Made by a program: the position numbers and the translations under genes. Shown here one piece after another: positions 14,032 through 32,000 of a stretch of DNA of 32,000 bases. Positions within the stretch are counted from its first letter, which is position 1, and every line of letters starts with the position of its first letter. Below the pieces are notes generated by a model. The model saw only the letters and a list, made by a program, of their open reading frames with translations, was not told the DNA's origin and did not search any database. Origin of the DNA: Nostoc punctiforme PCC 73102 (GTDB lineage Bacteria > Cyanobacteriota > Cyanobacteriia > Cyanobacteriales > Nostocaceae); assembly GCF_000020025.1 (NCBI RefSeq), contig NC_010628.1:3180001-3212000 (forward strand), given 5' to 3'.

Positions 14032-14250
14032 TTACCTTTTGGGAAAAACTCGTTTAACAATACGAAGCTGGGATAACTTGAAATATCCTGAATGTTCCAG
14101 ATTATCACCCAGATATAGAGCAACGCTTTCATCATTCCACGCAGAAAAATTTAAGTTGGTGTTGAGGTTGACCACTTTTCCACGACCAACTGTGCTGGGA
14201 GCCTTGCGTTTTAAAGTCTTGAAGGAAATGGGTTCTGAGTTAGCTGTCAT
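14032..14250 (-). CDS. Small hypothetical ORF directly downstream of, and overlapping, the endonuclease stop
   Basis: The minus-strand ORF reads MTANSEPISFKTLKRKAPSTVGRGKVV... (72 aa from the ATG at 14250; further in-frame ATGs lie at 14259 and 14265). It overlaps the stop of the upstream gene. No motif was recognised. Confidence 0.3.
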   Translation of the reverse strand: MTANSEPISFKTLKRKAPSTVGRGKVVNLNTNLNFSAWNDESVALYLGDNLEHSGYFKLSQLRIVKRVFPKR

Positions 14251-17425: not shown

Positions 17426-17643
17426 ATAGCCGATAATGGTGAGAACACACTTTGGTAATAAGCTGGTGATCTTTTCAGAAGATGCAGTTTACGTGGATAA
17501 ATCCTGAAAAAAATCTTGGTAATTCTGCATCTAGGAGTGGATTTTTCCCTTTGTTTGGAAAGTTATTTTTCTAATTAATTTAGAACACAAAATTTTGGGA
17601 ATGATAAATCTGTCCACTCCCAATCCACTTTTAACAGATTACA

Positions 17644-18711
17644 GTGCAACTTATCTCTAGACAAAGATATTTTTCATATATCTTTTTACTGATATTCTCC
17701 CTCGCTGGTTGTCAACGAGTCCAGTCTTTCAATCAGCGTCCAGCACCTTTACCACAAGACCCTTTAGTTCAAGTTTACTTTAACCATTCTGAGTCTTCAG
17801 AATACAAAGAAGCTTACCGTCAGCAAACTCGCTTGGGGGATGATTTAGAAAAAGAAATTGTCAATGCTATTACGCACGCTAAATCTACGATTGATGTGGC
17901 GGTGCAAGAATTACGTTTACCCAAAGTTGCCCAAGCACTGGTTGATAGACAAAAAGCTGGGGTAAAAGTCAGGATAATTTTAGAAAATACCTACAGCAGA
18001 CCTTGGAGTAGTTTAACATCTGCTGAAGTAAGTAAGTTAGATAAAAGGGAACAAGAACGCTACAACGAATTTCGCAAATTTATCGATATTAACCAAGATA
18101 ATCAACTCAGCCCAGCAGAAATCAATCAAAGAGATGCTTTAATAATTTTGCAGAATGCTAAAATTCCCTGGATAGACGATCGAGCAGATGGTTCAGCAGG
18201 TAGCAGCTTGATGCACCACAAATTTGTGATTGTAGATAATCGCATTGTCATTATCACTTCGGCCAATTTTACTTTAAGTGATACTTATGGTGATTTCACA
18301 AATTCCAATACTTTAGGCAATGCCAATAACTTATTGGAGATTGACAGCCCAGAATTAGCATCTTTATTTACAGAAGAGTTTAATATTATGTGGGGAGATG
18401 GGCCAGGAGGTAAGCCAGATAGTCGATTTGGGTTAGAAAAACCGATAAGATCGCCTAAAAAAATTACATTAAATCAAACTACAATTACTGTGCAATTTTC
18501 ACCAACTTCTCCGACTGAACCCTGGAGTAATAGTAGTAATGGTTTAATTGGTAAAACTTTAGATTCAGCAACCAAATCTGTTGATATGGCGTTATTTGTC
18601 CTTTCCGATCAGCGACTTGCTAATATCTTAGAAAATCGCCATCAACAAAATGTACAAATTCGCGCTTTAATTGAACCACAATTTGCATATCGTCCCTACA
18701 AGGACGGTTAA
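17644..18711 (+). CDS. Phospholipase D/HKD-superfamily lipoprotein, apparently 3'-truncated (second HKD motif missing)
   Basis: 355 aa with a GTG start and a lipobox (LAGC). The first HKD motif is HHKFVIVDNRIVIITSANFT. The second lobe begins (ATKSVDMALFVLSDQRLANILE...VQIRALIE mirrors AKSTIDVAVQELRLPKVAQALV...VKVRIILE), but the ORF ends about 12 aa later. Confidence 0.8.
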   Translation: MQLISRQRYFSYIFLLIFSLAGCQRVQSFNQRPAPLPQDPLVQVYFNHSESSEYKEAYRQQTRLGDDLEKEIVNAITHAKSTIDVAVQELRLPKVAQALVDRQKAGVKVRIILENTYSRPWSSLTSAEVSKLDKREQERYNEFRKFIDINQDNQLSPAEINQRDALIILQNAKIPWIDDRADGSAGSSLMHHKFVIVDNRIVIITSANFTLSDTYGDFTNSNTLGNANNLLEIDSPELASLFTEEFNIMWGDGPGGKPDSRFGLEKPIRSPKKITLNQTTITVQFSPTSPTEPWSNSSNGLIGKTLDSATKSVDMALFVLSDQRLANILENRHQQNVQIRALIEPQFAYRPYKDG

Positions 18712-18722
18712 GGCGGCAAATC

Positions 18723-18795
18723 AATGAAGGAAGCAGGAAGACGAAAGAAGGATGAAGTTAAGTCATCCCTCTTCCTACGAACTTCTTCCTTCATT
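18723..18795. repeat. MITE-like purine/pyrimidine hairpin element, copy A (11-bp terminal inverted repeats AATGAAGGAAG/CTTCCTTCATT)
   Basis: Read directly. The internal sequence gaaggatgaagtt...tcatccctcttcctacgaacttc is shared with copy B at 26690-26808. The right terminus contains the stop codon of the XRE gene. Confidence 0.7.
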
Positions 18796-19264
18796 CTTTT
18801 TCAACCCGCGTGGCGATCGCCCTTAGTAAATCCGCCAAATCAACCTGAGACATCAACTCAAGGTGGAAGGATACCCCTTCACCTTTGACACCATTGAGGG
18901 AAACTTTAGGTTGGGATAACCGGGCAATGATGTGCTGTGCCACCCTTGCGGCTTCTCTATCTGGCAATTGATCCACTACTGGAATTACGTCTTCAGCAAA
19001 CTTGTACTCTCTCACTGGTTGCGGCGCATTCTCACTGGCGCAAATGGCTATTAGTTCATCTCTGGTATAACCTAAGTGCGGCGCTAGCTTCTCAAGGGTT
19101 TTAAGTTCTGGCTCTTTCACCTCACCTTTTAAAATTCGCTCAATAGCTGGAGGTGATAAACCGACTTTTTTAGCAAAAGCCCTTTTTGATAGATGCCCTC
19201 TTGCCTTCTCAATAATTTCTGCCAGTTTTTCTATGCCCTCGTAGGTGTACACAGTTTTTGCCAT
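18791..19264 (-). CDS. XRE-family helix-turn-helix regulator (CI-like repressor candidate)
   Basis: 157 aa. The HTH segment LSKRAFAKKVGLSPPAIERILKGE is present. The gene is divergent from the rightward gene block. Confidence 0.85.
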   Translation of the reverse strand: MAKTVYTYEGIEKLAEIIEKARGHLSKRAFAKKVGLSPPAIERILKGEVKEPELKTLEKLAPHLGYTRDELIAICASENAPQPVREYKFAEDVIPVVDQLPDREAARVAQHIIARLSQPKVSLNGVKGEGVSFHLELMSQVDLADLLRAIATRVEKE

Positions 19265-19287
19265 ACACCCAGAATTACTGTTATACG

Positions 19288-19354
19288 TGAAACTTTACAA
19301 GATAGCATTGCAACACTATGTGTTTCATGATAAAGTGCAACATATAGTGTTTCA
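19288..19354. promoter_or_regulatory. Divergent promoter/operator region with two 19-bp direct repeats and a candidate rightward promoter
   Basis: TGCAACACTATGTGTTTCA (19309-19327) and TGCAACATATAGTGTTTCA (19336-19354) share 15/19 identity. An inverted TGAAAC half-site lies at 19288. TTGCAA (19308-19313), a 17-nt spacer and TAAAGT (19331-19336) overlap the repeats. Confidence 0.55.
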
Positions 19355-19364
19355 AAGAAGGTTT

Positions 19365-19838
19365 ATGCGCGTTAGAAAAAAGGAAATAGATGATTTTGTT
19401 AGTGAAAAAATCATCTATTCACCCACTAATGAATATCGTCATTGCTTGCATATCTTTGCTGCAATCGGCAAAGAGTTAATTTCTATTTACGCTTTGAAGT
19501 CTTGCAAAAAACAGATTGCTGGACTTTCACCATTACATTTCAAAATTAAACAGTCTATAGGAAAAAGAGAAAATCCGGTAACTATTTATATAGATAGGGA
19601 ACTAGATGAACTTTTGAAAAAGTTTGAAGGGATTCCCCGCTCTCATGTTTTAGAAAGATGTTTAATTTTGGAGGTTGATGAACGAATTTCTAAATGGAGA
19701 TGTGAAACTCCACTGCAATTTATTGGTTTAATGTCGTCAGAAACGCCTTTGAAAGACCTTAAGGGCGAGGTTTCATTAGGCAATGAAAGCCCCGCACCTA
19801 TTGGGCGGGGAAATAAGTACGCGCAGGTAGCGGCATGA
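19365..19838 (+). CDS. Hypothetical regulator with a ribbon-helix-helix-like segment (Cro/antirepressor position)
   Basis: The ATG at 19365 (MRVRKKEIDD...) is preferred to the track start at 19245, which would overlap the XRE start and the promoter region. The segment NPVTIYIDRELDELLKKFEGIPRSHVLERCL resembles RHH proteins. Confidence 0.6.
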   Translation: MRVRKKEIDDFVSEKIIYSPTNEYRHCLHIFAAIGKELISIYALKSCKKQIAGLSPLHFKIKQSIGKRENPVTIYIDRELDELLKKFEGIPRSHVLERCLILEVDERISKWRCETPLQFIGLMSSETPLKDLKGEVSLGNESPAPIGRGNKYAQVAA

Positions 19839-20020
19839 TAACACCTGCACAGCTTCTCAATTCATCAGCAACCAGATATCAACAGGCTCTTAACAACCTG
19901 CTTAAGTTTTGGCACATCAACGGGCAGTGCAAAACCTGCCCATATCGCACAAATTGCAGGGTACTGATTGAGCAGCAGATAGCTATTAAGGAGGAGGTTA
20001 AAGTCCTAATAAAAAAATAA
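19835..20020 (+). CDS. Small hypothetical protein (61 aa, Cys-containing)
   Basis: It has an ATGA start/stop overlap with the upstream gene and contains CKTCPYRTNC. Confidence 0.55.
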   Translation: MITPAQLLNSSATRYQQALNNLLKFWHINGQCKTCPYRTNCRVLIEQQIAIKEEVKVLIKK

Positions 20021-20042
20021 GTTGCGAATCTCACCTCGCAAC
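20021..20042. terminator. Hairpin after the early regulatory module
   Basis: gttgcga-atctcacc-tcgcaac is preceded by an A7-containing run (a strong terminator when read on the minus strand). On the plus strand only an interrupted T-rich tail follows. Confidence 0.4.
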
Positions 20043-20280
20043 CTGAATAATTTATTCCTTTGTTTACAAACCAAATAAGAATCTAACAACTTGATATTTA
20101 GCAAGCGCTAAATACGGGATTGTTGTTACCTGATTGCATATTGGGTCTTTATTAGGTTTTTATTATCGCACAAAAACCCTTAGATTTCTAGGCTTCCAAC
20201 GACATATTTGATAATGCGATTTTTTATTAAAATCGCGTGTTTACGTATATACTTACATACTTTACAAGGAGAGTATACCA

Positions 20281-20604
20281 GTGTCCAATATCACGATTTT
20301 ATCTGGTTCTGAATTAGATAAAAAGCACCAGCTAGAGCAATCAATATTAGAGGGCATTGAAGCGGGTAAAAAAGGCTTTCAGCAAGCCGCCCAAGCTTTA
20401 TTAAGAATTGATGAACTTGCACTATGGAGGGGCGAGGCAGTTTCATTTGATGCCTATCGCCAAAAATTCAAGGCGGTGCTAGAAGATTTAGATATCACAG
20501 ACAGACACTTAAACAGGTTACTTGCTGCTGAGAAGTGTGTACAAATGTTAAGACCAATTGGTCTTAACATTTGTACACACAAAGAAGTCATATCCGACCG
20601 TTGA
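20281..20604 (+). CDS. N-terminal part of a ParB/KorB-like DNA-binding protein (possibly split by a frameshift)
   Basis: GTG start 7 nt after AAGGAGAG. The pattern ...SFDAYRQKFKAVLEDLDITDRHLNRLLAAEKCVQMLRPIG continues logically into the next ORF in another frame. Confidence 0.6.
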   Translation: MSNITILSGSELDKKHQLEQSILEGIEAGKKGFQQAAQALLRIDELALWRGEAVSFDAYRQKFKAVLEDLDITDRHLNRLLAAEKCVQMLRPIGLNICTHKEVISDR

Positions 20605-21179
20605 CCCAACTTAAGGAGCCGCTTCAGGTACAGCAGGCTTACAAACGAGCGCTAGACATGGCTGAGAAGGAAGGGTGCAATCTCAAAGCCGAACACGTAC
20701 AAAAGGCTGTAGAAGAGATAAAACCGCCCAAGGTGAGGCTTGGGAAGTCACCACGCCCCCCAATTGGGGCAACAGTGCGGATACTTCCCCACTATGCCGA
20801 AGAGGAGTTTCACGGTGCAGAAGGTGTAATTGCCCAGCATCCATCAGTCGATCGGTGCATTGTCAGATTTGGAGATGAAACCAGCAAGCTGATTCCTGAC
20901 AACATGCTTGTGTGGGTAGAAGAAGTTAGGGAAGTAACCTCAACCAAACAGGAAGCTAAGGAACAAGCGATCGCCCTTGGGGTAAGAGTCGGATTACAAG
21001 CATTGCCAGATATCGAGCGTAATGAGGGAATTGCCAGCGAGAGGGAGCAGATTGAAGTGGAGGTGGCGATCGCTTCTTTCTTGCGATTGCTACCCAAGTT
21101 TTCGTACCAGCAGAAAGGTTTGGTGTATGAGCAATTGATGAAAAGTGGGTTTGCGCCAAAGAGGTCACAAGCAGCATGA
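20571..21179 (+). CDS. C-terminal part of a ParB/KorB-like protein with an SH3/KOW-like module
   Basis: The frame opens after a stop at 20565-20567, and the first possible start is a TTG. SHIRPLTQLKEPLQVQQAYKRAL...AEHVQKAVEEIK is typical of the segment that follows the HTH in such proteins. The true start is uncertain. Confidence 0.55.
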   Translation: MYTQRSHIRPLTQLKEPLQVQQAYKRALDMAEKEGCNLKAEHVQKAVEEIKPPKVRLGKSPRPPIGATVRILPHYAEEEFHGAEGVIAQHPSVDRCIVRFGDETSKLIPDNMLVWVEEVREVTSTKQEAKEQAIALGVRVGLQALPDIERNEGIASEREQIEVEVAIASFLRLLPKFSYQQKGLVYEQLMKSGFAPKRSQAA

Positions 21180-21508
21180 AATATACCAATTTACCCCAAC
21201 CAATTCCAAAACGAATATTGGGGATAGCTATTAACCGTCAACCTGGGGCGACTGGGCTTTGGGTAACGAGTAAGTACGATGTCTGGCATCTGCCAAACGG
21301 ATTGATATTCAAGCTAGGCGATCCCCTAAGAGTGAGTTGGTTCAAAGAAGGTAGAGAAGCGACAAGGGAAGAAGTACTTGAATCAATCAACAGTGGCTAC
21401 CCAATCCTTCTAGAAGCCGCTCAAATCGATGGTGCTGGGGCTGTTAAGAAATTGGAAGAAATGCGCGATCGGGCTTTGGAATTATTACCAGTGACGGTGA
21501 CGGTATGA
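21176..21508 (+). CDS. Hypothetical protein (110 aa)
   Basis: ATGA overlaps occur at both ends, indicating translational coupling within the operon. Confidence 0.65.
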   Translation: MKYTNLPQPIPKRILGIAINRQPGATGLWVTSKYDVWHLPNGLIFKLGDPLRVSWFKEGREATREEVLESINSGYPILLEAAQIDGAGAVKKLEEMRDRALELLPVTVTV

Positions 21509-22653
21509 GAGAAAGCTGTATATCGCACAAACCCAAATCACTGCTACTGGTTATCCGTGAAGACTATTTTAGGTTAGCAAAGTGTGACAAAGTACTATCC
21601 GCTTTACTTTCAGTTTTTGAATATTGGGCCAATGGTGAAATCTCCAAAAATCCCTCTTTAGCAGAAGAATCAATAGATTTAGGGATTCGCACAATATCAG
21701 AAATTGAAAAACTGACCTTGTGGATTGCGACAGACAAACAGATCCGCACCAAGCTTAAGGAGCTTGAAGAATTAGGCTTCGTATCATCTTGTAAAGGAGT
21801 AGGCAATCACACCGCATACAGCCTTCACGTTCCCTACTTGCAGCAAGCCTTAGATGCACTTGATTGGTCTCTATCTTTATCAGAATTACGAAAACAAAAC
21901 CCTTCTCGATGCACCCATACCTCCGGTTTATTAACCGAACCCCCTCCGGTTAATAAACCGCACCCCTCCGGTTTATTAACCGAACCCCCTCCGGTTAATA
22001 AACCGCACCCCTCCGGTTTATTAACCGAACCACTATATATAGAAGAATTTAAGAATTTAATTAAAGAATGTGTAAGAAGCGCTGACGCACAAAACACACA
22101 CACTGACGACGAGGACGAGGTTGATTTTGCTAGTGCAACCTCTCGTAGAGAAGAAAACCAATCACCTGTAGATCCTTTTCTTGCCACCAATCCCAAAGAA
22201 GAACCTGCGCTTTTGCCCCACGTCTTACCGCTTGAATCGAATATTCCGGCGAATGAGAATAACAATCATTTTCATAAAACAGCAGATAGAGTGCGATCGC
22301 AGTGGGAGCAAACAGGGGTATTGCCAAAAATCCCAATGGAAATAGATGCATGGGCGGCGATTGATTTAGGGCAAGAGGTGATTAATGCTTACCGTTTGAG
22401 TGGCAGGATAACCACTATCAAGCGGGGTGATATTGTGCCTGAATTTGCCTTATACGTGAGCGGTCAAAACAAAGGTAAAGATGTTGATTACGGCTACGCA
22501 TATATCAAAAAACTGGAATTAGATCCGCGCCAATGGGAGACTCTAGCCGCATTGGTTTTGAAGTGGCAAACATCACATCAGACGGGTAATCGCAGTATCA
22601 GCATTGTCCGTGAGGTCAAACGTAGACCGCTAATTGAGCTTAATTTGAGGTAA
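21505..22653 (+). CDS. Replication-initiator-like protein (lambda O-like organisation) containing an internal iteron array
   Basis: 382 aa. The N-terminal winged-helix-like segment is ISEIEKLTLWIATDKQIRTKLKELEELGFVS. A Pro-rich repeated linker (SGLLTEPPPVNKPHP, about 2.4 copies) is encoded by the iterons. The gene is followed by a loader-like gene. Confidence 0.6.
   Translation: MRESCISHKPKSLLLVIREDYFRLAKCDKVLSALLSVFEYWANGEISKNPSLAEESIDLGIRTISEIEKLTLWIATDKQIRTKLKELEELGFVSSCKGVGNHTAYSLHVPYLQQALDALDWSLSLSELRKQNPSRCTHTSGLLTEPPPVNKPHPSGLLTEPPPVNKPHPSGLLTEPLYIEEFKNLIKECVRSADAQNTHTDDEDEVDFASATSRREENQSPVDPFLATNPKEEPALLPHVLPLESNIPANENNNHFHKTADRVRSQWEQTGVLPKIPMEIDAWAAIDLGQEVINAYRLSGRITTIKRGDIVPEFALYVSGQNKGKDVDYGYAYIKKLELDPRQWETLAALVLKWQTSHQTGNRSISIVREVKRRPLIELNLR
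21921..22075. repeat. Candidate replication origin: 45-bp tandem repeat (2.4 copies) carrying five CGGTT-N4-AACCG palindromes, then an AT-rich tract
   Basis: Perfect 45-mers lie at 21921-21965 and 21966-22010, with a partial copy to 22031. The palindromes start at 21924, 21947, 21969, 21992 and 22014 (spacing 22-23 bp), with cores alternating TATT/AATA. 22032-22075 is actatatatagaagaatttaagaatttaattaaagaatgtgtaag. Confidence 0.6.
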
Positions 22654-22656
22654 ATC

Positions 22657-23295
22657 ATGCTAACTCGTGAAAATTTTGAAGCCTGCATTCAGGAATTAGA
22701 AAGTTTTTATAACGGCACTATTCTTAACGGAGGAATTTTAGAATCTGTTTGGTACAAGACTTTAAAGCACTTACCTTTGGAAAAATTACAAAGTGCGATC
22801 GCGGGATGTTTTAAGAAGCATCCACGCCAGTACAATTTTTTCCCCTCAGCCGGACAGATTTTAGATTTTGCAAATTTTGTAGGGGGCGAGTATAGGGAGC
22901 CAGGGGAATCCATATTAGGGGATTTCAGCTTACCTATATTGCCTTCTGTTGAAGAAAGGCTTACGCCTGAGCAAAAGGCTGAATTAAATAAGCGCGGGAG
23001 ACTCCAAGCGCGGATTATAGTGAATGCTCAAAGCTGGATGACACCAGAACAAAAAGACGCTCTTGTAGAGCAACTAAAGCTTAAAGAAACTCACGAGTTA
23101 GAGGCGATCGCTTCTACGTCTGCGCGATTACCACGTCGTCCTAAATTCAACAATCTTTCTTTGACGATTAAAAATTTAGAGCAGGAGTTGGGCATACAAT
23201 GCGACTACGAAGAAGAGGAAGTCACGAGTGAGGTAAAAGCCTCAAGCTATGACACAAGAGCAATTGCTCGTCAGTGGTTGGAGGGATCTCGATGA
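22657..23295 (+). CDS. Hypothetical protein, possibly a helicase loader/replisome organiser (G39P-like pattern)
   Basis: 212 aa. The N-terminal pattern SVWYKTLKHLPLEKLQSAIAGCFKKHPRQYNFFPSAGQILDFA resembles remembered loader proteins. It lies immediately after the initiator-like gene. Confidence 0.4.
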   Translation: MLTRENFEACIQELESFYNGTILNGGILESVWYKTLKHLPLEKLQSAIAGCFKKHPRQYNFFPSAGQILDFANFVGGEYREPGESILGDFSLPILPSVEERLTPEQKAELNKRGRLQARIIVNAQSWMTPEQKDALVEQLKLKETHELEAIASTSARLPRRPKFNNLSLTIKNLEQELGIQCDYEEEEVTSEVKASSYDTRAIARQWLEGSR

Positions 23296-23744
23296 CTAAA
23301 ATTGACTTCATCCTCCGGCAATCCGCAACCAACAGAGATCAACTCACAACCCTAAGCGACACCCAATTAGAAATGGCGTGGAGCATCGCTCGCTATGACG
23401 TAAAAGCGGCTTACAGGTACTGCGTGATGATGGATGCCAAAAACCAGATGAAATGCCCATCCTGTGGCAAGGAATTTGTAAATTCCTACGAACAACATGA
23501 TGGAAGTATGGCTTTTGTTTGTGCGTCGTGTAGTCCAAGAAGGAAGAAGAATTCGGAATTCCCTCTGCCTTCATTGACACTAAACCCATCCGACTATCAC
23601 ACCGTATGCACTGGGAAACCAATTTGCATTGATGCCCAAACCGCCAAGCATCAAGCTAAGAAATGCAAAATCATCAACAAAGTTACGGGAGCTTGTGTGG
23701 TGCGAACTTTGGTTATGGTGGGCGATCGCGGGTACTGGCAATAA
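23292..23744 (+). CDS. Zinc-ribbon hypothetical protein
   Basis: The ATG at 23292 follows GGAGG and overlaps the upstream stop as ATGA. CPSCGKEF...CASCSP forms a CxxC...CxxC pair. Confidence 0.65.
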   Translation: MTKIDFILRQSATNRDQLTTLSDTQLEMAWSIARYDVKAAYRYCVMMDAKNQMKCPSCGKEFVNSYEQHDGSMAFVCASCSPRRKKNSEFPLPSLTLNPSDYHTVCTGKPICIDAQTAKHQAKKCKIINKVTGACVVRTLVMVGDRGYWQ

Positions 23745-23765
23745 AAACATAAAGGTATTGTAAAA

Positions 23766-24422
23766 ATGATTGATAGAGAAACTCTTGGTAAAACTGTTCG
23801 CCGTGCCTTGGTCAATTGGGCAAAAGAGCAAGAAAACCCTCCTACTTTTTGGAATGACTCGGATGAGTATCAAGAAGTAAACGAACATATTGGCGAAGCC
23901 GTGCAACGAGCAATATTGAGAGAGTTTGCCGACCATGTTGTTTGGTTCAGTGGTGACGACGAGCGCCATGCCATACCCTCAGAAGGGATGGTAAAACTAA
24001 TCAACTACGTAGAAAAAGAACTAAACCAAAGCAACGTTAATCTTGCCAATTTGCACAGTTCAATTGTTTGGGGTATCCGTAAAGTTAAATCTGATGAACG
24101 TGATATTGCAGTCAGATTTTTAGCTTTTAAGGATGACACTTTAGCTTACTTACGAGCACTGGTTTTAATTACCGAGATGGCCAACGGCGACCAAACCCAC
24201 GCTGAGAAAAGAATTCTGCTTAATCATCTAATCAAGCAATTAGAAGGGGCGATCGTTAAAATTCGCAACGTTGAAAACTATCTCCTTACCAATTATTGGG
24301 AAAGGGAGGATGTTTTTAAATCCGATTATCCGAACCGATATTGGCGAGAAAAGGTTGCTCAGTTAGAAGAAGAAATTAAAAGTTTGAAATCTGGTAAGCC
24401 GCCAAATGAATCACCATTTTAA
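23766..24422 (+). CDS. Hypothetical protein (218 aa)
   Basis: Long ORF in the operon with coding-like composition. No motif was recognised. Confidence 0.65.
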   Translation: MIDRETLGKTVRRALVNWAKEQENPPTFWNDSDEYQEVNEHIGEAVQRAILREFADHVVWFSGDDERHAIPSEGMVKLINYVEKELNQSNVNLANLHSSIVWGIRKVKSDERDIAVRFLAFKDDTLAYLRALVLITEMANGDQTHAEKRILLNHLIKQLEGAIVKIRNVENYLLTNYWEREDVFKSDYPNRYWREKVAQLEEEIKSLKSGKPPNESPF

Positions 24423-27400
24423 AATTGGCTCAATCGCCTCTGGTATGGGAATGCACCTGCATGGATTGAAGCAAATTGGTGGTGTCCCTGTGTGGGCAAT
24501 CGAATGTGATGAGGCGATCGCCCACTGCTACCACCAAAATCACAAAAGCGAAGTCTACATCAAAAAAGTTCAAGACGTTGCCCCATCTGATTTGGCAGAT
24601 ATTGATTTGTTAATAACTACCCTCAGCTGTAAAAATGCATCCATTGCCAACGCTAACCGGGGCGAATTGCCAGAAGATGCAGCAGCCGGGATAGCCACCG
24701 GTGACATCATCAAAGCCTTAAAGCCCCAGTACTTCATGCTTGAGAACGTCTGGGGATACCGCAAATTCGAGTCTTTTAAACAAATTCAAGCGGCGCTGGA
24801 TGAGTGTGGCTACTATTCCCGCTTTTACAAATTCAATTGCCGTAATTGGGGTATTGCTCAAAGCCGCGATCGCCTTTATCTTTTGGCAAGCAAGGATGGT
24901 ACTTTCGCTGATCCTGTACCTCCACAAATCTCAGAGGTTGGGTGGTATGAGGTGATCGCTGACTTGATTGATGAGCTACCAGAAACAACACTTGCACCTT
25001 GGCAGTTGCGTAAGTTTCCAGAGTTAGCCCGTGAAGCTAATTCTTGTTTAATCCCAGACCACTCTAATTGGACAAATTTGATTCCTCAGTCTGCCCCTTG
25101 CTCAACAGTTAGAGAAGGACACCAAACCTTTAAAGCTTTAATCAAACGTGCCGGTGGGGGAAGAGATAGCGATCGCCTTTACCAAAGTGATGAACCATCT
25201 TTCACTATCCGAGCGATGGGTAGAAAGTCTGATAATCACTCTCGCATAGCCGACGCGATCGTGGGTGACAGAATTGTTGCGGTGACTCCTCGCGCTTGTC
25301 TGCGGTTTTTTGGCGATAAAGAAACAGCAGATAATATCTGGCTTCCTCCTACCAAGTCGCTAGCGAATGAGGTAGTAGGCAATGGCGCTAGTTGGGTGAT
25401 GTTCAAAAGCCTATTTGAGCATTTATCCCAGTCTGTGCCGACGTTGCTTTCCATCGAATCAAACTCCTTGAGGGATATTTCGACTTCGCTCAATACAAGT
25501 GGTGGCGAAATGGTTGAGAACTTTTTTCAGATAGGCGATCGCGTTGAACTTGTATGCGATGTTTTATTTGGTGATATAAACCTCAAAGCTAAAAACCCCA
25601 ATGCCAAACTAGCCATTGCTGGAGAGTGCGCCGAAGTATGCGGCGTTCGAGGTACAAGACTTGCTCTTAGTGTTGGCGGTGAGCCATTTGATTGTCCCAT
25701 TAGGTTAGTGAAAAAAAATTTAGATGTTCCTACCGCCGATACCGCAATGTTTACGTCAGAGCAGGGTATAGGGACTCAGGTAGAGAATAATTCTCATTCT
25801 GAACCTTGCCCCCCTCCACCCAAAGAATCAGATAAGTGGTATACACCACCCAATATTCAGGATTTACTCACGCAGGTACTCGGCGCAGTTGACCTTGACC
25901 CTTGCGCCGATGACGGTAAACATATCAAAGCGGCAAACCATTACACCGCATCTGATGACGGACTTGCTCAGGAGTGGTACGGACGGGTGTTTATGAACCC
26001 TCCCTATTCATGCCCTGGCAAGTGGATGGCGAAATTGCAAGCAGAGATAGAGGCTGGAAGGGTAACGGAGGCGATCGCCCTGGTTCCGGCAGCGACAGAT
26101 ACCAATTGGTTGCACCCGCTCCTTGACACTCAACCCATCTGCTTTTGGAAAGGCCGCATCAAATTTTTAGATACGAACTATCAACCAAAACTCTCGGCTA
26201 GGCAATCACACTGCCTGCTGTATTGGGGTACTAATGCACAGAAATTCAAACAAGTTTTTGACGAAGTTGGAACTGTGAAAAATATAAGCCAGTCTGCTCT
26301 TCTCTGCGAGACGCTGCGCGATGGGGTTTCCCCAAGTGGAAGAACTGGCGTTGAATCTGAAACTGCTTGGAATCCTGCTGATTTTGGAGAAGTACCACGC
26401 ATTGCTGATGGCGATCAACTAACGATTTTTTATGACACCCATGAGCCACCAGACCCCGACAATTACCCGTCTATCGCGGCGTATGAACAGGCATGGCAGG
26501 AATGGGAGAAAAAGCTGACTAGGAGCAACGTAAAACAGGGAGTTCACGTTGTTGACCAGCTTGGATCGTTGGGGATTATCAAAGAAAACTTGGGGTTTGG
26601 GTTTGTCGTTGATTGGTTGGGTGACGCTGTTGCTTACAACTGGGAGCGAGACAGCGATCGCATTGATACTTTTAAGATCGCAAATCAAGGAAGGATGAAG
26701 GAGGAAGGAGGAAGAAGTGATGAAGTTGAATCTGAATCATCATCCCTCTTCCCGACGCTCGCAGACTCGCTACCGCTACGCTATCTCCCCTCTTCCTGCG
26801 AACTTCCCAATCAAGTTTTTAAAAACAAGGAGCAAAATACTGTGACAACTTTCCAATTTTCTGGCACACAGGCGATCGCCTCTCAAATTGCCCAATTACA
26901 AGAGCAATTGAACAAACTCACCGCCTCTTTAGAGCCATACCAAGAGTGCGAACAAAAAGCTGAGGAATTGCGCCAAGAAGTGGCGCAATTTGGGCGGGAA
27001 ATGGTAGATAAGGGAATTCCCCAGAATGACATTTTAAGTTGGGCGCGATCGCTTTATAGCGCGGCTAGTGGTGTGGAGTTAGTGGAGAGTGATAGTAGTG
27101 TAATTGCTGCTCAAAATGAAATTATTAGTGAATTGAAAGCCGGAAATCATGTATTGCGTGAGCAATATAGCGAAGTCATAAGACAAAGAGATTTACTAAT
27201 AAAGCAGGTTGAAGACAATGATAATGATATGGATGTGCAACTAGCGGAACAACAATTAATACCAGAAGTGGAAGCTTCAAACAAAGAACTTACCGAAGGC
27301 GTAGCAAGCTTTACTGAAGGCGATCGCGTTTGTGTAAATGCTATACACGAATTAGAACACTTACTCGAAAGACTTGGTACAGTAGTTGGAATAAAAGGTA

Positions 27401-27948
27401 ACTCTATTGCCGTACTTTTTGACGCAACAGATAATGAAGGTCAGCACGAAATAATTACCGATAGAAGTAATTTGGTGCTACTTTTGAAAGCTACTCCAGA
27501 CAATCACGCACACATTAAAGCTTCTAACTTTATAGCTACTATTCGTACCAAAGCCGGAGCAAATAACATTAATTGGCAGAATATCAGCGAACTGTGCCAA
27601 GGCAATCATCTTATTTTAAAAGAATTGCTTTTAACGACCACTACAAAAATTCAAAAAGAACTGATTCAAAAGCTACCTCAACTGATGGCTGATTACATTG
27701 CTGAAACTGGTGACATTACAGATATGCAGCTTGTTGGCGATAAATTTAAGTCTGAAGTTGAGGCGTTGTTAGAAGTAAAAAAGTCTCTGGTGTATCAAGC
27801 TGGTGATTGGGTAAAAAGTACAGAATCGGGTGAAATCTGGCAAGTACGAAATTTTGACGGTGAGTGGTTGTCGGTGAAACGAGACAACAAGATTGGCTCA
27901 CTGCATAAATCAGAAGTTGAGTTGATTCAACAAGAAATCGCTGCTTGA
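24406..27948 (+). CDS. Fusion protein: C5-cytosine DNA methyltransferase + Dam-type (PF05869-like) N6-adenine methyltransferase + long SH3-like/coiled-coil tail
   Basis: In aa 1-340 I read motif I (IASGMG), motif IV variant (TLSCKNAS), ENV (MLENVWG), QSRDRLYLL, VTPRACLRFFG and GNGAS. In aa ~476-615 I read DKWYTPP, DLDPCA, FMNPPYS, LVPAATDTNW and KGRIKF. The remainder has heptad-like and GD(R/W)V modules. Confidence 0.85.
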   Translation: MNHHFKIGSIASGMGMHLHGLKQIGGVPVWAIECDEAIAHCYHQNHKSEVYIKKVQDVAPSDLADIDLLITTLSCKNASIANANRGELPEDAAAGIATGDIIKALKPQYFMLENVWGYRKFESFKQIQAALDECGYYSRFYKFNCRNWGIAQSRDRLYLLASKDGTFADPVPPQISEVGWYEVIADLIDELPETTLAPWQLRKFPELAREANSCLIPDHSNWTNLIPQSAPCSTVREGHQTFKALIKRAGGGRDSDRLYQSDEPSFTIRAMGRKSDNHSRIADAIVGDRIVAVTPRACLRFFGDKETADNIWLPPTKSLANEVVGNGASWVMFKSLFEHLSQSVPTLLSIESNSLRDISTSLNTSGGEMVENFFQIGDRVELVCDVLFGDINLKAKNPNAKLAIAGECAEVCGVRGTRLALSVGGEPFDCPIRLVKKNLDVPTADTAMFTSEQGIGTQVENNSHSEPCPPPPKESDKWYTPPNIQDLLTQVLGAVDLDPCADDGKHIKAANHYTASDDGLAQEWYGRVFMNPPYSCPGKWMAKLQAEIEAGRVTEAIALVPAATDTNWLHPLLDTQPICFWKGRIKFLDTNYQPKLSARQSHCLLYWGTNAQKFKQVFDEVGTVKNISQSALLCETLRDGVSPSGRTGVESETAWNPADFGEVPRIADGDQLTIFYDTHEPPDPDNYPSIAAYEQAWQEWEKKLTRSNVKQGVHVVDQLGSLGIIKENLGFGFVVDWLGDAVAYNWERDSDRIDTFKIANQGRMKEEGGRSDEVESESSSLFPTLADSLPLRYLPSSCELPNQVFKNKEQNTVTTFQFSGTQAIASQIAQLQEQLNKLTASLEPYQECEQKAEELRQEVAQFGREMVDKGIPQNDILSWARSLYSAASGVELVESDSSVIAAQNEIISELKAGNHVLREQYSEVIRQRDLLIKQVEDNDNDMDVQLAEQQLIPEVEASNKELTEGVASFTEGDRVCVNAIHELEHLLERLGTVVGIKGNSIAVLFDATDNEGQHEIITDRSNLVLLLKATPDNHAHIKASNFIATIRTKAGANNINWQNISELCQGNHLILKELLLTTTTKIQKELIQKLPQLMADYIAETGDITDMQLVGDKFKSEVEALLEVKKSLVYQAGDWVKSTESGEIWQVRNFDGEWLSVKRDNKIGSLHKSEVELIQQEIAA
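26690..26808. mobile_element. MITE-like hairpin element, copy B, inserted in frame inside the methyltransferase fusion gene
   Basis: A 119-bp insert lies between direct repeats AATCAAG (26683-26689 and 26809-26815). 119+7=126 nt, which is 42 codons with no stop. The internal sequence is related to copy A. Confidence 0.65.
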
Positions 27949-27951
27949 ACC

Positions 27952-28003
27952 AGAAGGAAGAAGGAAGAATTCTTCTCTACCTTCTTCTCTCTTCCTTCTT
28001 CCT
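27952..28003. repeat. Polypurine/polypyrimidine hairpin, copy C, 4 nt after the fusion-gene stop; terminator candidate
   Basis: An 18-nt pure purine arm (agaaggaagaaggaagaa) is followed by a ~33-nt pyrimidine arm. It contains the 12-bp palindrome GAAGAATTCTTC (27964-27975) plus 8-9 bp outer pairings in several registers. Confidence 0.6.
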
Positions 28004-28025
28004 TTGTTAAATCAAAGGGGATATT

Positions 28026-28157
28026 TTGTCTATTTGTCCATACTGCCAAACTCAATTTGACTTAATTGATGGCTTTGGTAATCACTGCTCTCGCCGTTGC
28101 GCGGTTCGCCACGGCAATAAAAATTTGTGGTCTGAAGAAGAGAACTTGAACACTTAA
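28026..28157 (+). CDS. Possible 43-aa zinc-ribbon peptide (TTG start), below the ORF-track cut-off
   Basis: Hand translation gives (M)SICPYCQTQFDLIDGFGNHCSRRCAVRHGNKNLWSEEENLNT. AAAGGGG lies 7 nt upstream. It has a CxxC...CxxxC pattern. Confidence 0.3.
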   Translation: MSICPYCQTQFDLIDGFGNHCSRRCAVRHGNKNLWSEEENLNT

Positions 28158-28166
28158 AATCAATGA

Positions 28167-28433
28167 TTGGCTCAAGCCCAGGCAGGCATCGCCCAGATGT
28201 GGAATAGGCTTTACGAGCCAGAATACCAAGAGCGCGGCATTAATCAAATATTCATTTTTACTGCACAATTTGGGGAATTGATAATAAGATTAGAAGTTAA
28301 TCCTTTTGAAGACGAACTTGCCAAAAAGTTGGTAGCACCTGAACCACAAGCTTTTCAAAATTGGCAAAAGAAAGTTGAGGAGCAATTCAAGAAATTGTAC
28401 GGAATTAGCATTAAACAGTGGCAAAAGCGGTAA
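28167..28433 (+). CDS. Hypothetical protein (88 aa; start uncertain)
   Basis: The ORF starts with TTG in the track, and an internal ATG at 28197 is an alternative start. No motif was recognised. Confidence 0.5.
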   Translation: MAQAQAGIAQMWNRLYEPEYQERGINQIFIFTAQFGELIIRLEVNPFEDELAKKLVAPEPQAFQNWQKKVEEQFKKLYGISIKQWQKR

Positions 28434-28711
28434 AATACCAGTATTTTTACCACTGCGCTTTTATGTGCATCCTGTTGTCAAACGACCATCTAAGAGAACT
28501 TACGGAGATATATCACGTACAAGACGGTACAAAGATTCCTGTGCTAATTGAATTTCTTTGGTCGCTCCGACATTTACAAGATAAGCTGGAAGACTTGCCG
28601 CCAATGGAGAATAAAACCCACTTAGTGGATCGGGCGCAAGAGATGGATTGCGCGATCGCGTCTGAAATTATAGAATCTGTTGAAAAATGCTTACAATCGA
28701 TTCCCCCCTAG
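28418..28711 (+). CDS. Hypothetical protein (97 aa; start uncertain)
   Basis: GTG start overlapping the upstream stop, with an alternative ATG at 28463. It overlaps the next gene by 25 nt. Confidence 0.5.
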   Translation: MAKAVKYQYFYHCAFMCILLSNDHLRELTEIYHVQDGTKIPVLIEFLWSLRHLQDKLEDLPPMENKTHLVDRAQEMDCAIASEIIESVEKCLQSIPP

Positions 28712-31404
28712 CCACAGATACCGCCGCACGCTACACCGCCGCCCATTTAATTGAAGTGGCAAAACAGGAAAACAACTTTGCGCCTTTAGTAACTGTGGAT
28801 TTTGGGAAAGCAGAAAGCATAGTTGTTGAATACCAAGAAACAATCACTCTTCCTGAAAGCTGGGAAAGTGTAAGGGCGATCACTTCCAACGGACAAACTT
28901 ACACCCCAGCAATTGATCCCGAATCGCCTCAAGCGGGGGAATTTGTCTACAATCCCTACACCAACACAGTGCAAGTTTATGGGACAGTAGGGCGGAGTCT
29001 TCAAATTTACGGTAATACCCAAACAATTAAATTCTTCCCTCCCCTGCTTCCCCCTCCCTACCCTCAACTTTTTACCAATTTGCCATTAGAGGGGGCTATT
29101 CAATTTACTCGCCAATTTGAACAACAACCATCTGCCCAATTTGAATTAGAGCTAAGGCTATCTAAAGCGCAAATACAAAGTATTTTTGCACCGGGGACAG
29201 AATTGGATTTGTACGGGTTGCCGTTGAGAATTAACAGTTTAAATATTAAAGAATTACCCCGATCGATATACCCAGATGGACGTTGTAAAATAAGCGCCTC
29301 ACTGGGTTCGCGCTGGGAAAATTATCTTGATGAGCCGTGCTTCTTGCGGTCGGATGGGGGAAATAGTACATCAATCAGTGAGCCATTTCAAGACACCGAA
29401 TGCACCGCGCCCACGCCATCACTAACCGATCCCAACTTCAACACGACCATACAGCAGTTGCTTGCCAAGATAGGTATTGCCTACACTGGGCCCAACCTTG
29501 CGTCTGTACCAATACCTCAAGGTACAGCAAGGGATACAGTGGTGAATCCGTTGCAGCTACTGAGCGATCGCTTGTTAGTCGCAAATTCTTTTGTGAGGTG
29601 GAGTAACGCATCTGCGGTTGAGGTGGTTCCGATTGGTAGCGGAAGGGTGTGGAATTATCAAGAATCTGATATTAAAGGAGAGGATGGAGTTGATACGAGT
29701 TTTGAGGCGATCGCCAAACTCAGCAAGCGCCGACTGACAGCAATTCCTAACTTAAATCCCCCGCCCCCCGACTTAGTGAATTTTCCAAGCGAGGTGCAGT
29801 TGCCACCAGTGCCACAACTACGGGGCGAGTTACCAACAGCGCTGGCGTTTGAATACCCAAATAGCGAACTAACTGGGGAATTTAGCGAGATTCGATCTGA
29901 CCAGCAAGAGCGCACCCAAGGGCAAAAACCTAGATATACAAGAAAGCCAAGAAAAATAGAAGAACGGATCGACGGCGATAAAAATGCTCATATTCCTTTA
30001 GAGGGTGTGCAGTCCATCCAAAATATGAGCTTGATTTTTGATATTGGCGGACAAACTAAAACCCGCTCAACTACCACTACTGAGGATGGGGCGACGGTTA
30101 AAGTTGTTGACGAGATTTGGGGTTTCGTTTGCTATGCCGCTCAAATTTATGATGATAGCCGCGATCGCCTTAATGGCAATCCTAATGATTATTGGGTGTG
30201 CTTGAAGCGGACAACCACAGATTACACCTACGACGAAGATACTGGCTACTTACTTTCTACTGCAACATCTGGCTATAATACTGTACGCTTCCGCCAAGAA
30301 TCAGCGGACAATCCCGAAACACTGGGGATGGATTCAGGCGATCCAGAACTCGATTTGTATAAATTTATTCAAATACCAGTTCTTGGGCGCACTAGCTACT
30401 ACCTCAAATTGATGCCTGAATACAGTAGCGAGGGGTTATTTGAATTAGTAAAAGTGTGCAACAGAGACGGTACTAGTACACTTCAGCCGCTAATTAATCC
30501 AGACTACGCGCCGCCGTACTATGTGGAGTATGAGCGCACGGAATCAGTCGCGTTTGCAAGTCGCCCCAACCCAGATAATGAAGGTAGAACCGGAAGTGAA
30601 GACGACCCCCTTGCGCCTGATTTAACTGCAGGGGAAGAATCAAAATTTGAAGCTTTCACTCAAGTGACTGTTGCTACATACCAACAAAAGTTAATAGGGT
30701 TTGAGGGTGGCTACCCAACTTACGAGCGCGGGGAAGAAAATACACCCCAAAAGTTCACCAAGTACATCAAACAATTCAAGGCTCAAGGCCCCGCGATCGC
30801 CACTGCCCTAGAAGAAATCTCAATTGAAGAGGGCACTGGAGAACTGCCCACAGCCACTAGAAGTCCACCACAATTTACCAAAGAACAACCTGCTGAAAAA
30901 CCTAATAAAACCGAAGAGGAGAAACAGAAATATCGGTATTTTCTGCAAACTGCGGGGTATACGGCGGCCGCCCCGATTAATGGCAGTGAAAGCTTCCCCT
31001 TAGCTAAAACTTTTGAGCAAGCGCTGACTGCTGCTCGGTGTAAATTGGCTATTGAAAATTGGAGAAATGGATTTACAGAGACGTTGCAAGTTGGGGGGAA
31101 TTTGGGGATTCGAGAGGGCGATCGCTTTAACTACACTTGCAATGGTGAATTTCGCCAAAGGATAGTACTAGGAGCGCAAACTACACTCAATATTTTGGGC
31201 GCGGTTGACGGTGTGCCTAAGGTGACTTCTGTTACTTCCCTCACATTGGGGCGATGGATGTTGCCAGAGTTGACTTATAGTAAAGTGCCAGTGCCCAAGG
31301 AGCCGAAAGCGCCTAGATTTAATATCACCGTAACTGATGTGGTAAGCGCCGAACTAGGCAGTATTATTGATTGGGCGAAGATTAGAAGTAGAAGAAATCC
31401 TTAG
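28687..31404 (+). CDS. Large hypothetical protein (905 aa), possibly a virion/tail-associated structural protein
   Basis: Uninterrupted 2.7-kb ORF with beta-rich, Pro-rich segments (FFPPLLPPPYPQLF, NLNPPPPDLVNFPSEVQLPPVPQL). The structural role is assigned only from size, composition and position in a phage-like element. Confidence 0.7.
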   Translation: MLTIDSPLATDTAARYTAAHLIEVAKQENNFAPLVTVDFGKAESIVVEYQETITLPESWESVRAITSNGQTYTPAIDPESPQAGEFVYNPYTNTVQVYGTVGRSLQIYGNTQTIKFFPPLLPPPYPQLFTNLPLEGAIQFTRQFEQQPSAQFELELRLSKAQIQSIFAPGTELDLYGLPLRINSLNIKELPRSIYPDGRCKISASLGSRWENYLDEPCFLRSDGGNSTSISEPFQDTECTAPTPSLTDPNFNTTIQQLLAKIGIAYTGPNLASVPIPQGTARDTVVNPLQLLSDRLLVANSFVRWSNASAVEVVPIGSGRVWNYQESDIKGEDGVDTSFEAIAKLSKRRLTAIPNLNPPPPDLVNFPSEVQLPPVPQLRGELPTALAFEYPNSELTGEFSEIRSDQQERTQGQKPRYTRKPRKIEERIDGDKNAHIPLEGVQSIQNMSLIFDIGGQTKTRSTTTTEDGATVKVVDEIWGFVCYAAQIYDDSRDRLNGNPNDYWVCLKRTTTDYTYDEDTGYLLSTATSGYNTVRFRQESADNPETLGMDSGDPELDLYKFIQIPVLGRTSYYLKLMPEYSSEGLFELVKVCNRDGTSTLQPLINPDYAPPYYVEYERTESVAFASRPNPDNEGRTGSEDDPLAPDLTAGEESKFEAFTQVTVATYQQKLIGFEGGYPTYERGEENTPQKFTKYIKQFKAQGPAIATALEEISIEEGTGELPTATRSPPQFTKEQPAEKPNKTEEEKQKYRYFLQTAGYTAAAPINGSESFPLAKTFEQALTAARCKLAIENWRNGFTETLQVGGNLGIREGDRFNYTCNGEFRQRIVLGAQTTLNILGAVDGVPKVTSVTSLTLGRWMLPELTYSKVPVPKEPKAPRFNITVTDVVSAELGSIIDWAKIRSRRNP

Positions 31405-31415
31405 TTATTTTTATT

Positions 31416-31580
31416 ATGTACACCACTGCTAAAGTAGCCGAACCTTGGCGATCGCTATTCCCCAAAATCAAAGAATCTACTACCAGTATTGAAGTTACGG
31501 TGCGCGGTCAAAGTTTCACAATTGAGATTCCCAAGAGGCGATCGCAGGTCACTACCAACAGAAATTTACAATTTCGCTAG
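31416..31580 (+). CDS. Possible 54-aa hypothetical protein, below the ORF-track cut-off
   Basis: Hand translation gives MYTTAKVAEPWRSLFPKIKESTTSIEVTVRGQSFTIEIPKRRSQVTTNRNLQFR. Its TAG stop shares the tetranucleotide CTAG with the stop of the convergent gene. Confidence 0.35.
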   Translation: MYTTAKVAEPWRSLFPKIKESTTSIEVTVRGQSFTIEIPKRRSQVTTNRNLQFR

Positions 31581-31993
31581 CCTGAAAATGTCTTTTTCTT
31601 TTTATCTTCATTGAAAATTGTTGGCTGCGCTAATCGCTTGACAATTGTAAATTCTTCATTTACGACATCTTTGAAATCACCAACTCTTTTAAGTTTACTG
31701 TAGGGCACAAATAAATCCTTGTTTTCCAAAGGTGGCGGCATTTCACCCACGTTCACGGGCTGGTAATTAACATCTGGGAAAACGCTTGCATTTATTGGTG
31801 AAGAGAATATTGCATCGTTTGGCGTTAAAGTGGTATTTTCTTCGCCTTCCAAAAACTCTTCTTTGATAAAGATAAAAACTTGTTGCCTGTAGGGATAATC
31901 TAATGCAATATCATAAGTACCGGGGATATCTACTTTCAAAACAATGCCGCCAACAGAACCATAAGCTGTAAATGGTTTGTCTCCACTTGGCAT
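31577..31993 (-). CDS. Hypothetical protein (138 aa), convergent with the rightward block
   Basis: ORF with an ATG at 31993, 7 nt from the window edge. No motif was recognised, and the start could lie outside the window. Confidence 0.55.
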   Translation of the reverse strand: MPSGDKPFTAYGSVGGIVLKVDIPGTYDIALDYPYRQQVFIFIKEEFLEGEENTTLTPNDAIFSSPINASVFPDVNYQPVNVGEMPPPLENKDLFVPYSKLKRVGDFKDVVNEEFTIVKRLAQPTIFNEDKKKKTFSG

Positions 31994-32000
31994 TGGTTTT

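Follow-up and report, generated by a model that had tools for sequence, protein, structure and literature searches.

A predicted two-methylase fusion with a Nostocales-specific acidic tail in a prophage-like element of Nostoc punctiforme

Our study examined 32 000 nucleotides (nt) of Nostoc punctiforme PCC 73102 (assembly GCF_000020025.1, contig NC_010628.1, positions 3,180,001 to 3,212,000 of the forward strand), referred to here as the window and numbered from its first letter. At 24406..27948 on the + strand, it revealed a gene of 1180 amino acids (aa) that joins a C5-cytosine DNA methyltransferase, a small barrel, a phage Dam-type N6-adenine methyltransferase and an acidic tail of about 550 aa. 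It is the final large gene of the early/replication operon in a siphovirus-like element of Nostocales, a prophage or what is left of one. The balance of the evidence tilts towards an orphan bifunctional phage methylase that protects the DNA of the element from restriction, with the tail as a scaffold or tether. We see the fusion as a lineage-specific variant of a well-known kind of enzyme by which phages protect themselves; a link to the highly iterated palindrome HIP1 is hypothetical. Orphan methylases of phages are already known, as are methylases with several specificities or domains and polyvalent proteins for counter-restriction (PMC12707154, PMC5512222); what is new is the order C5, barrel, PF05869 and tail, a proline-less motif IV found throughout a clade, and a Nostocales-restricted tail that is nearly always coupled to a methylase. 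Related contigs and proteins are cited by their locus (L) and protein (P) numbers.

Domain architecture of the fused methylase

An earlier, sequence-only reading of this DNA had proposed a single unbroken open reading frame (ORF) of 1180 aa carrying two methylase modules, followed by about 550 aa of SH3-like modules and predicted coiled coil. This was borne out, as the ORF is uninterrupted and the profile hidden Markov model (HMM) check of PF00145 and PF05869, when run, found both domains above their gathering scores. All of the C5 and Dam motifs it had quoted sit where it had placed them. The predicted model of the tail likewise agrees, with three small barrels and a long helical hairpin, although a confidently modelled all-alpha domain had gone unmentioned. 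The fusion of C5 module, Dam module and tail holds for this gene, but it is one state of a recurrent unit that elsewhere consists of a C5 gene overlapping a Dam-plus-tail gene. The modules are as follows, all on the + strand.

24406..27948: whole uninterrupted ORF, 1180 aa (C5 methylase, barrel, Dam-type methylase, acidic tail)
24406..25440: C5-cytosine DNA methyltransferase module, aa 1-345 (PF00145, motifs)
25525..25764: small inter-methylase module, aa 374-453, probably an SH3-like barrel
25813..26295: phage Dam-type N6-adenine methyltransferase module, aa 470-630 (PF05869, motifs, model)
26296..26511: conserved and highly acidic segment, aa 631-702 (net charge -11)
26512..26685: tail beta-barrel 1, aa 703-760, SH3-like/KOW-like fold class (predicted model, Foldseek)
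aa 761-817: disordered linker before the helical hairpin (predicted model)
26857..27243: long helical hairpin or coiled coil, aa 818-946, net charge -12 (predicted model)
27322..27489: tail beta-barrel 2, aa 973-1028, predicted local distance difference test (pLDDT) score about 90 (predicted model)
27490..27786: all-alpha domain, aa 1029-1127, better conserved than any other part of the tail (predicted model)
27787..27945: tail beta-barrel 3, aa 1128-1180, pLDDT about 90 (predicted model)

The inter-methylase module is also present in five other Nostocales proteins (P0014-P0018), of which P0014 has a Dam domain and P0015-P0018 have no recognised methyltransferase domain. Public assemblies hold the identical 1180-aa protein in 60 indexed blocks, in every case on contigs of less than 50 kb, and the NCBI copy (P0001, 100 % identical over 1099 aa) ends at a contig end; the region therefore tends to break assemblies.

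The C5-cytosine module and its motif IV

The N-terminal module matched PF00145 over aa 5-303 (E 6.9e-29, 101.7 bits against a cut-off of 22) and the PHROG family phrog_116 (E 1e-38). Its motifs, all on the + strand, are listed below.

24433-24453: motif I, IASGMGM, aa 10-16
24619-24642: motif IV, TLSCKNAS, aa 72-79, in which S74-C75-K76 is nt 24625-24633
24628-24630: codon of Cys75
24739-24750: motif VI, LENV, aa 112-115
24859-24873: motif VIII, QSRDR, aa 152-156
aa 157-293: variable target-recognition region
25285-25317: motif IX, TPRACLRFFGD
25378-25392: motif X, GNGAS, aa 325-329

Alignment with HMMER placed TTLSCKNAS in register with GGPPCQSWS of M.HaeIII and GFPCQAFS of M.HhaI, with ENV and QxRxR aligning too, which identifies Cys75 as the catalytic cysteine. 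The canonical Pro-Cys dipeptide and the Gln of motif IV are absent, as the query reads L-S-C-K. An exhaustive phmmer search of the module against 1.84 billion cluster representatives returned 4638 matches, 196 of them at E<=1e-30, and motif IV was tallied over the best 153 representatives that align through it, each standing for a cluster. The cysteine was invariant (153/153) and ENV nearly so (152/153). The two residues before the cysteine and the cysteine itself read PPC in 71, PVC in 40, PSC in 19, LSC in 7, PEC in 5 and PIC in 3, with a few others, and the residue that follows was K in 40, P in 39, T in 37 and Q in only 24. The proline at -1 is thus replaced in about half of these nearest relatives, and that at -2 is lost as well only in a Nostoc sub-clade comprising the query, P0002, P0008, P0009, P0019 and P0020. 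The sequence-only reading had correctly described a motif IV with the cysteine kept and the proline and Gln lost, but this departure is not peculiar to the query. Because the loss is common and conserved across a phage-rich clade, it indicates a tolerated clade trait rather than gene decay.

An alternative is that the C5 module is a catalytically dead pseudo-enzyme kept for DNA binding or structure, leaving the Dam module alone active. Replacement of both prolines and the Gln of motif IV (TLSCK) would fit this, as would the NCBIfam dcm cut-off not being reached and the GNV found in place of ENV in a related phage protein, CL131 gp071, which shows that inactivation occurs within the clade. However, the query keeps the cysteine, ENV, QxRxR and motifs I, IX and X, which are conserved across the clade, and the -1 proline is dispensed with in about half of the 153 cluster representatives. 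We therefore regard a dead C5 module as quite improbable.

Within the literature covered by our search, no mutagenesis study of the motif IV proline came up. Substitutions of Pro185 in EcoRII reportedly lower activity without abolishing it. The natural LSCK, PSCK and PVC variants make up a ready series with which to ask what the proline of the Pro-Cys dipeptide adds to C5 catalysis.

The Dam-type N6-adenine module

The second module is only about 160 aa long and is essentially a catalytic core. It matched PF05869 over aa 473-602 (E 1e-17, 64.8 bits against a cut-off of 28.1) and phrog_111 of PHROG (E 6e-38), and its best PADLOC match was an 'orphan methyltransferase' model. PF02086 was not matched in the Pfam search, and a sequence search of the PDB gave no match. 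The motifs, on the + strand, are as follows.

aa 476-482: DKWYTPP
25891-25908: S-adenosylmethionine (SAM)-binding motif DLDPCA, aa 496-501
25996-26010: catalytic motif NPPYS, aa 531-535
aa 563-568: ATDTNW
aa 583-587: GRIKF

In an alignment of 60 Dam homologues, NPPY and DLDP were invariant or nearly so. The AlphaFold (AF2) model built from this alignment reached a pLDDT of 91.8 and a predicted template modelling score (pTM) of 0.84, and its top Foldseek matches in the PDB were, with few exceptions, class-I SAM methyltransferases, the majority being adenine-N6 enzymes (KsgA/Dim1, Erm, METTL5, METTL16 and RlmJ). The sequence-only reading had staked its claim on a methyltransferase fold in both modules, and both keep one, the Dam model matching SAM methyltransferases weakly. 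A relaxed specificity, which membership of the non-specific adenine methylases Hia5 and Hin1523 in PF05869 would have suggested, was dropped, as the published paper places them with the classical alpha-class Dam enzymes.

Structure, charge and distribution of the tail

The AlphaFold model of the tail had a mean pLDDT of 71.6, rising to about 90 over the C-terminal 200 aa. Within this model the barrels themselves span aa 714-758, 974-1027 and 1135-1173, the helical hairpin aa 819-945 and the all-alpha domain aa 1031-1126. Foldseek matched its barrels only weakly to KOW, L21e, Tudor/Agenet/MBT and integrase C-terminal domain (CTD) barrels and to uncharacterised phage proteins. The KOW HMM found nothing in the query, whereas it matched the relatives P0183 and P0003. 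The all-alpha domain contains invariant W, K, Q, K, L and D within ..NINW..TTKxQKEL..ETGDITD.. and had no relative by structure or by sequence. With an isoelectric point of 4.61 and a net charge of -40, and with each of its modules acidic or neutral, the tail is unlikely to be a DNA clamp; its acidity therefore argues for a protein-protein role.

A search of 5.8 billion proteins found the tail in about 35, all from Nostoc, Fischerella, Aulosira, Richelia or related metagenomes, and on this evidence it appears to be confined to heterocystous cyanobacteria. A scan of species-representative genomes gave three tail loci, all in Nostoc, a lower bound because the scan was pattern-based. No tail homologue was found by tblastn in 50,697 phage records or by a pattern scan of the viral contigs of IMG/VR.

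Methylases exchanged in front of a conserved tail

In related elements the tail almost always accompanies a methylase. The recognised domains ahead of it are C5 plus Dam in the query, P0005 and P0010, C5 alone in four proteins and Dam alone in about 14, while about 10 have no recognised head. Elsewhere the same association is made by overlapping genes. A short C5 gene encoding 256-272 aa overlaps the start of the Dam-plus-tail gene by 8 nt in L006 and L015, and in L009, L011, L012 and L013 such a gene overlaps the start of a tail gene with an unrecognised head (by 4-8 nt in L009, L011 and L012, where gene calls existed). Altogether 10/11 loci examined couple the tail to a C5 methylase, by fusion or through an upstream gene that overlaps the tail gene, and five of them also have Dam. 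Fusion and translational coupling are thus two ways to build the same methylase-tail unit. One of the proteins with Dam but no C5, the 1650-aa relative P0003, combines a GNAT acetyltransferase, DUF6610 and Dam with the same tail in a polyvalent-like architecture.

The short C5-methylase genes lie at these positions.

L006 9238-10008
L009 7190-8008
L011 561-1379
L012 7234-8004

These short C5 genes carry canonical FPC or SPC motifs with ENP for ENV and (H/Q)xRER for QxRxR, and gave no tblastn match to the C5 module of the query. The split C5 gene of L006 was accordingly ruled out as an orthologue of that module, which points to cassette replacement rather than simple gene fusion or fission. The C5 module of P0010, of the PVCS type, is 29 % identical to that of the query, and its Dam-plus-tail part 43 %. 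Three C5 lineages (LSCK/PSCK, PVCS and short FPCT) therefore occupy one slot before the tail, and from these differences it seems that different methylases have been swapped into a fixed position ahead of a conserved partner. Module shuffling shows again in the acidic segment, aa 655-702 of which (26368-26511) are 62 % identical to a 64-aa ORF that stands by itself in L002 (9844-9993), immediately before the methylase gene.

As no more than about 50 aa are left for target recognition in the short C5 enzymes, and since each of their genes overlaps the start of a tail gene, they may need the tail as a partner for DNA recognition. A wider proposal is that the tail is an undescribed, Nostocales-specific scaffold that organises methylases, bringing together C5 and N6-adenine activities whether fused or coupled, on which the short C5 enzymes of 256-272 aa, poor in target-recognition sequence, would depend; the resulting complex would be tethered to a particular phage or host machine, such as the replisome, packaging motor or virion, thereby tying methylation of phage DNA to a step of the life cycle. 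We put this forward as a tentative possibility.

Prophage context and orphan status

The features that place the gene within an element are as follows.

18791..19264, - strand: helix-turn-helix gene resembling Cro/CI-type repressors, at the element's left edge, 78 % identical to its L006 equivalent
19245..24422, + strand: rightward early/replication-type operon before the methylase gene, syntenic with L004 and L006 and partly with L002
28687..31404, + strand: 905-aa phage protein (phrog_15468, E 2e-169)

The genes of the early operon are mostly unannotatable, share one orientation and end at the methylase, whose ATG and the stop of the upstream 218-aa gene overlap by 17 nt. The 905-aa protein is 46.8 % identical to gp043 of Nodularia siphoviruses (2AV2 among them), which adjoins a block of phage tail genes, and its gene is also kept downstream of the methylase in L002. 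Related contigs share the gene order for the repressor, a number of the early genes and the methylase slot; in L002 this also takes in the 905-aa gene. In a longer record with the identical protein, a convergent block to the right matches phage families (phrog_31840, E 1e-208).

The sequence-only reading had also described the methylase as an orphan with no adjacent cognate nuclease. This held, as none of the neighbours from 22657 to 31404 matched a nuclease or defence model. With no cognate endonuclease gene beside it, the methylase is not part of a type II restriction-modification (R-M) system.

The gene's position also bears on whether the protein is delivered by the virion, like P1 DarB and other polyvalent proteins. 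On that account the C-terminal region would be capsid-targeting or structural, and the methylases, injected along with the DNA, would protect it in cis as it enters. In favour are the size and multi-domain make-up of the protein, the place of its gene at the border with tail-structural genes, the polyvalent-like 1650-aa relative with GNAT and DUF6610, and documented cases of packaged proteins that contain methylases (PMC5512222; PMC12707154). Against this, the gene shares the direction of the early/replication operon, which it overlaps, rather than that of the convergent structural block, no portal, terminase or MuF linkage was seen, and no homologue of the C-terminal region came from the phage records or the IMG/VR scan. 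The methylases are also not of the EcoKI/TaqI-like methylase-helicase type that is typical of DarB-like proteins (PMC5512222). Virion delivery is thus improbable.

Restriction-site loss and the HIP1 repeat

A census of palindromes was made over 148 kb, comprising window positions 18791-32000 together with L002, L004, L006, L009 and L012-L015. GGCC occurred at 0.20 of expectation, with 0 sites in 23 kb of L004, and CCGCGG, CTCGAG, GACGTC, GAGCTC, GCATGC, GGCGCC, GTGCAC and TTCGAA were absent where 5-18 of each were expected. This loss of sites reveals strong restriction pressure on these elements. CGATCG (observed to expected ratio 1.26) and GATC (0.79, against 0.74 in the host) were not avoided.

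The sequence-only reading had noted that the element is packed with HIP1, and the count agrees (41 in the window against 0.24 expected). The element carries 1.82/kb against 0.90/kb in the chromosome that flanks it; the sister elements range over 1.3-3.5/kb, L004 being the densest at 3.5/kb. A link between HIP1, GATC and CGATCG has been proposed before for the host enzymes DmtA (alpha-class Dam) and DmtC (M.XorII group) (PMC4390886). Extending that link, the sequence-only reading had speculated that the C5 module methylates CGATCG and the Dam module GATC, placing both marks on the octamer GCGATCGC. The greater density of the octamer in the element and its sisters than in the adjacent chromosome is in keeping with this idea. 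The sparing of CGATCG and GATC while many other palindromes were purged would fit methyl-protection, and endonucleases specific for both sites exist in some cyanobacteria (PMC4390886). Conversely, host enzymes would methylate these sites anyway, so their non-avoidance needs no phage enzyme. The N6-adenine module belongs to PF05869 and has no PF02086 match, whereas DmtA is an alpha-class Dam, so that specificity cannot be transferred by orthology. For neither module is a relative of known specificity close enough for its motif to be carried over; the nearest relative from an isolated phage is uncharacterised and only 46.6 % identical, and transfer of a motif normally needs about 80 % identity (bioRxiv 10.1101/2024.04.29.591623). 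Furthermore, the three C5 lineages interchanged in one slot suggest varied specificities and therefore argue against one fixed HIP1-related target. Double marking of HIP1 by the fusion is possible but unsupported, and we consider it unlikely.

Another reading is that the methylase has been domesticated from a decayed prophage as an epigenetic regulator serving the Nostoc cell, for example in differentiation-linked regulation. The identical protein recurs across many independent sequencing runs, sister elements lie beside XisA/XisC-type recombinases, and HIP1 density and GC content are host-like. However, a full syntenic phage operon and genes of phage structural type remain, the strong avoidance of palindromes points to continued horizontal transmission, and the distribution is patchy and cassette-like. 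Domestication is accordingly very improbable.

Proposed function

Self-methylation against restriction is a well-documented 'Trojan horse' strategy (PMC12707154 section 65), and phage methylases of the orphan or multi-domain kind are well established as protectors of exported DNA (PMC12707154 section 65; PMC5512222). In the self-protection model that we favour, the gene would be expressed when the element replicates. The N-terminal module would make 5-methylcytosine, using Cys75 as the nucleophile together with the glutamate of ENV and the arginines of QxRxR, and the central module would make N6-methyladenine through NPPY. Both would act on the element's own DNA, so that progeny genomes would be shielded from restriction enzymes both in the present host and in the one infected next; replication or packaging could be timed by methylation as well. 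The C-terminal region of 550 aa, presumably non-catalytic and too acidic to clamp DNA, would most likely be a protein-protein scaffold, in which the helical hairpin might serve oligomerization and the SH3-like barrels and alpha domain might act as docking modules. Through it the methylases would be kept together or anchored to a protein complex of the phage or the host.

Several observations weigh against this model. Both methylase modules scored below the cut-offs of their NCBIfam models (TIGR00675 'dcm', 86.8 bits against 100.65; TIGR01712, phage_N6A_met, 61.2 bits against 97.05), and the fold matches of the Dam model were weak (E about 1e-3, template modelling scores 0.4-0.48). The LSC form of motif IV, with both prolines gone in the Nostoc sub-clade only, could lower activity. 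The tail barrels matched generic small barrels weakly (Foldseek against PDB and BFVD, best E 2e-3), the tail-only gene of L010 has no methylase beside it, and the scaffold role, although the most likely one, is drawn from gene linkage, charge and fold class. On its right side the element runs past the end of the window.

Comparison with known systems

The fusion resembles the orphan methyltransferases of phages, such as the multispecific C5 enzymes of Bacillus SPR and phi3T, P1 Dmt and the Dam of T1/VT2-type phages, in being phage-borne, nuclease-less, located in the early/replication region and presumed to act in self-methylation (PMC12707154 section 65). It shares with the multispecific enzymes more than one methylating capacity per polypeptide. 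Unlike all of these, it joins C5 to a PF05869 N6-adenine module through an extra barrel, adds a 550-aa lineage-specific tail and has LSCK rather than PCQ in motif IV. P1 Dmt is itself said to be a two-domain methylase.

Its closest relative from an isolated phage is gp071 of the Aphanizomenon phage vB_AphaS-CL131, a Nostocales siphovirus, with 46.6 % identity over aa 1-342. This protein (L001 6010-6918) also has a Ser-Cys type motif IV (ATPSCYNAS), but it is a stand-alone protein of 302 aa with neither Dam module nor tail, its motif VI is GNV instead of ENV, and its gene is preceded by an ASCH-domain gene. CL131 gp071 may be inactive because GNV replaces the catalytic ENV.

Polyvalent proteins and P1 DarB are likewise large multi-domain phage proteins that use a DNA methylase for counter-restriction and show domain shuffling (Iyer et al. 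2017, PMC5512222). DarB-type proteins combine an EcoKI/TaqI-like adenine methylase with a superfamily 2 helicase and are packaged in the virion (PMC5512222). Searches of Pfam, PHROG and NCBIfam revealed neither a helicase nor any further effector domain in the query, no LPD domain or packaging linkage was seen, and the protein is not a DarB-type polyvalent protein. It parallels the host enzymes DmtA (GATC) and DmtC/M.Ssp6803I (CGATCG) in pairing N6-methyladenine with 5-methylcytosine in HIP1-rich cyanobacteria (PMC4390886, PMC6105098); however, these are separate chromosomal genes, and DmtA is an alpha-class Dam as opposed to PF05869. The tail barrels may belong to the small five-stranded fold class of KOW/Tudor/SH3-like adaptors (NusG/Spt5 KOW, L21e, Agenet/MBT, integrase CTD), although they are acidic rather than basic and the similarity is weak (best E 2e-3).

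Filamentous cyanobacteria are very rich in restriction systems, and little is known of their temperate phages. The locus shows two anti-restriction strategies within one phage lineage, namely wholesale loss of restriction sites and what would be a self-encoded double methylase, and it reveals a conserved, apparently non-catalytic partner module with a testable role. If the enzymes did prove to mark CGATCG and GATC, mobile elements would be connected to the long-standing HIP1 puzzle.

Neighbouring genes and other observations

To the left of the element, positions 1 to about 13.7 kb of the window are ordinary chromosome, encoding a pyrophosphatase, HtrA, a DD-carboxypeptidase, a pentapeptide protein and others. 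Two further features lie between this region and the repressor.

14243-16212, - strand: probable type II R-M pair, a 300-aa NotI-like endonuclease and a 362-aa N6_N4 methylase
17644-18711, + strand: PLD-family protein (PF13091) with weak matches to DrmC (DISARM nuclease), adjoining the element repressor

The endonuclease of the pair matched PF12183 (E 7e-5) and the PADLOC model REase_II (2e-8). The pair is 8 kb from the methylase gene, beyond host-type genes, with an aminotransferase gene and the PLD gene between it and the element. The PLD-family protein might be a stand-alone nuclease or defence gene.

Scans for promoters and terminators gave sites no more numerous than in shuffled sequence, and a hairpin at 27999-28020 is only suggestive. 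No XisA/XisC-type gene was found at the left edge of the element in the window, whereas in two sister elements a recombinase of this type (PF27551/PF27132), a family that excises heterocyst-specific DNA elements, lies about 1 kb left of the repressor (L006 2600-3724, L009 1045-2172). Downstream of the P0010 methylase, L004 encodes a 1086-aa protein with an intein and a LAGLIDADG homing endonuclease (16890-20150). Within the early operon, a 382-aa protein (21505-22653, + strand) has a 15-aa unit (SGLLTEPPPVNKPHP) that recurs in tandem about 3 times, almost without change, and its N-terminal part resembles the product of a 523-aa gene upstream of the tail-only gene of L010.

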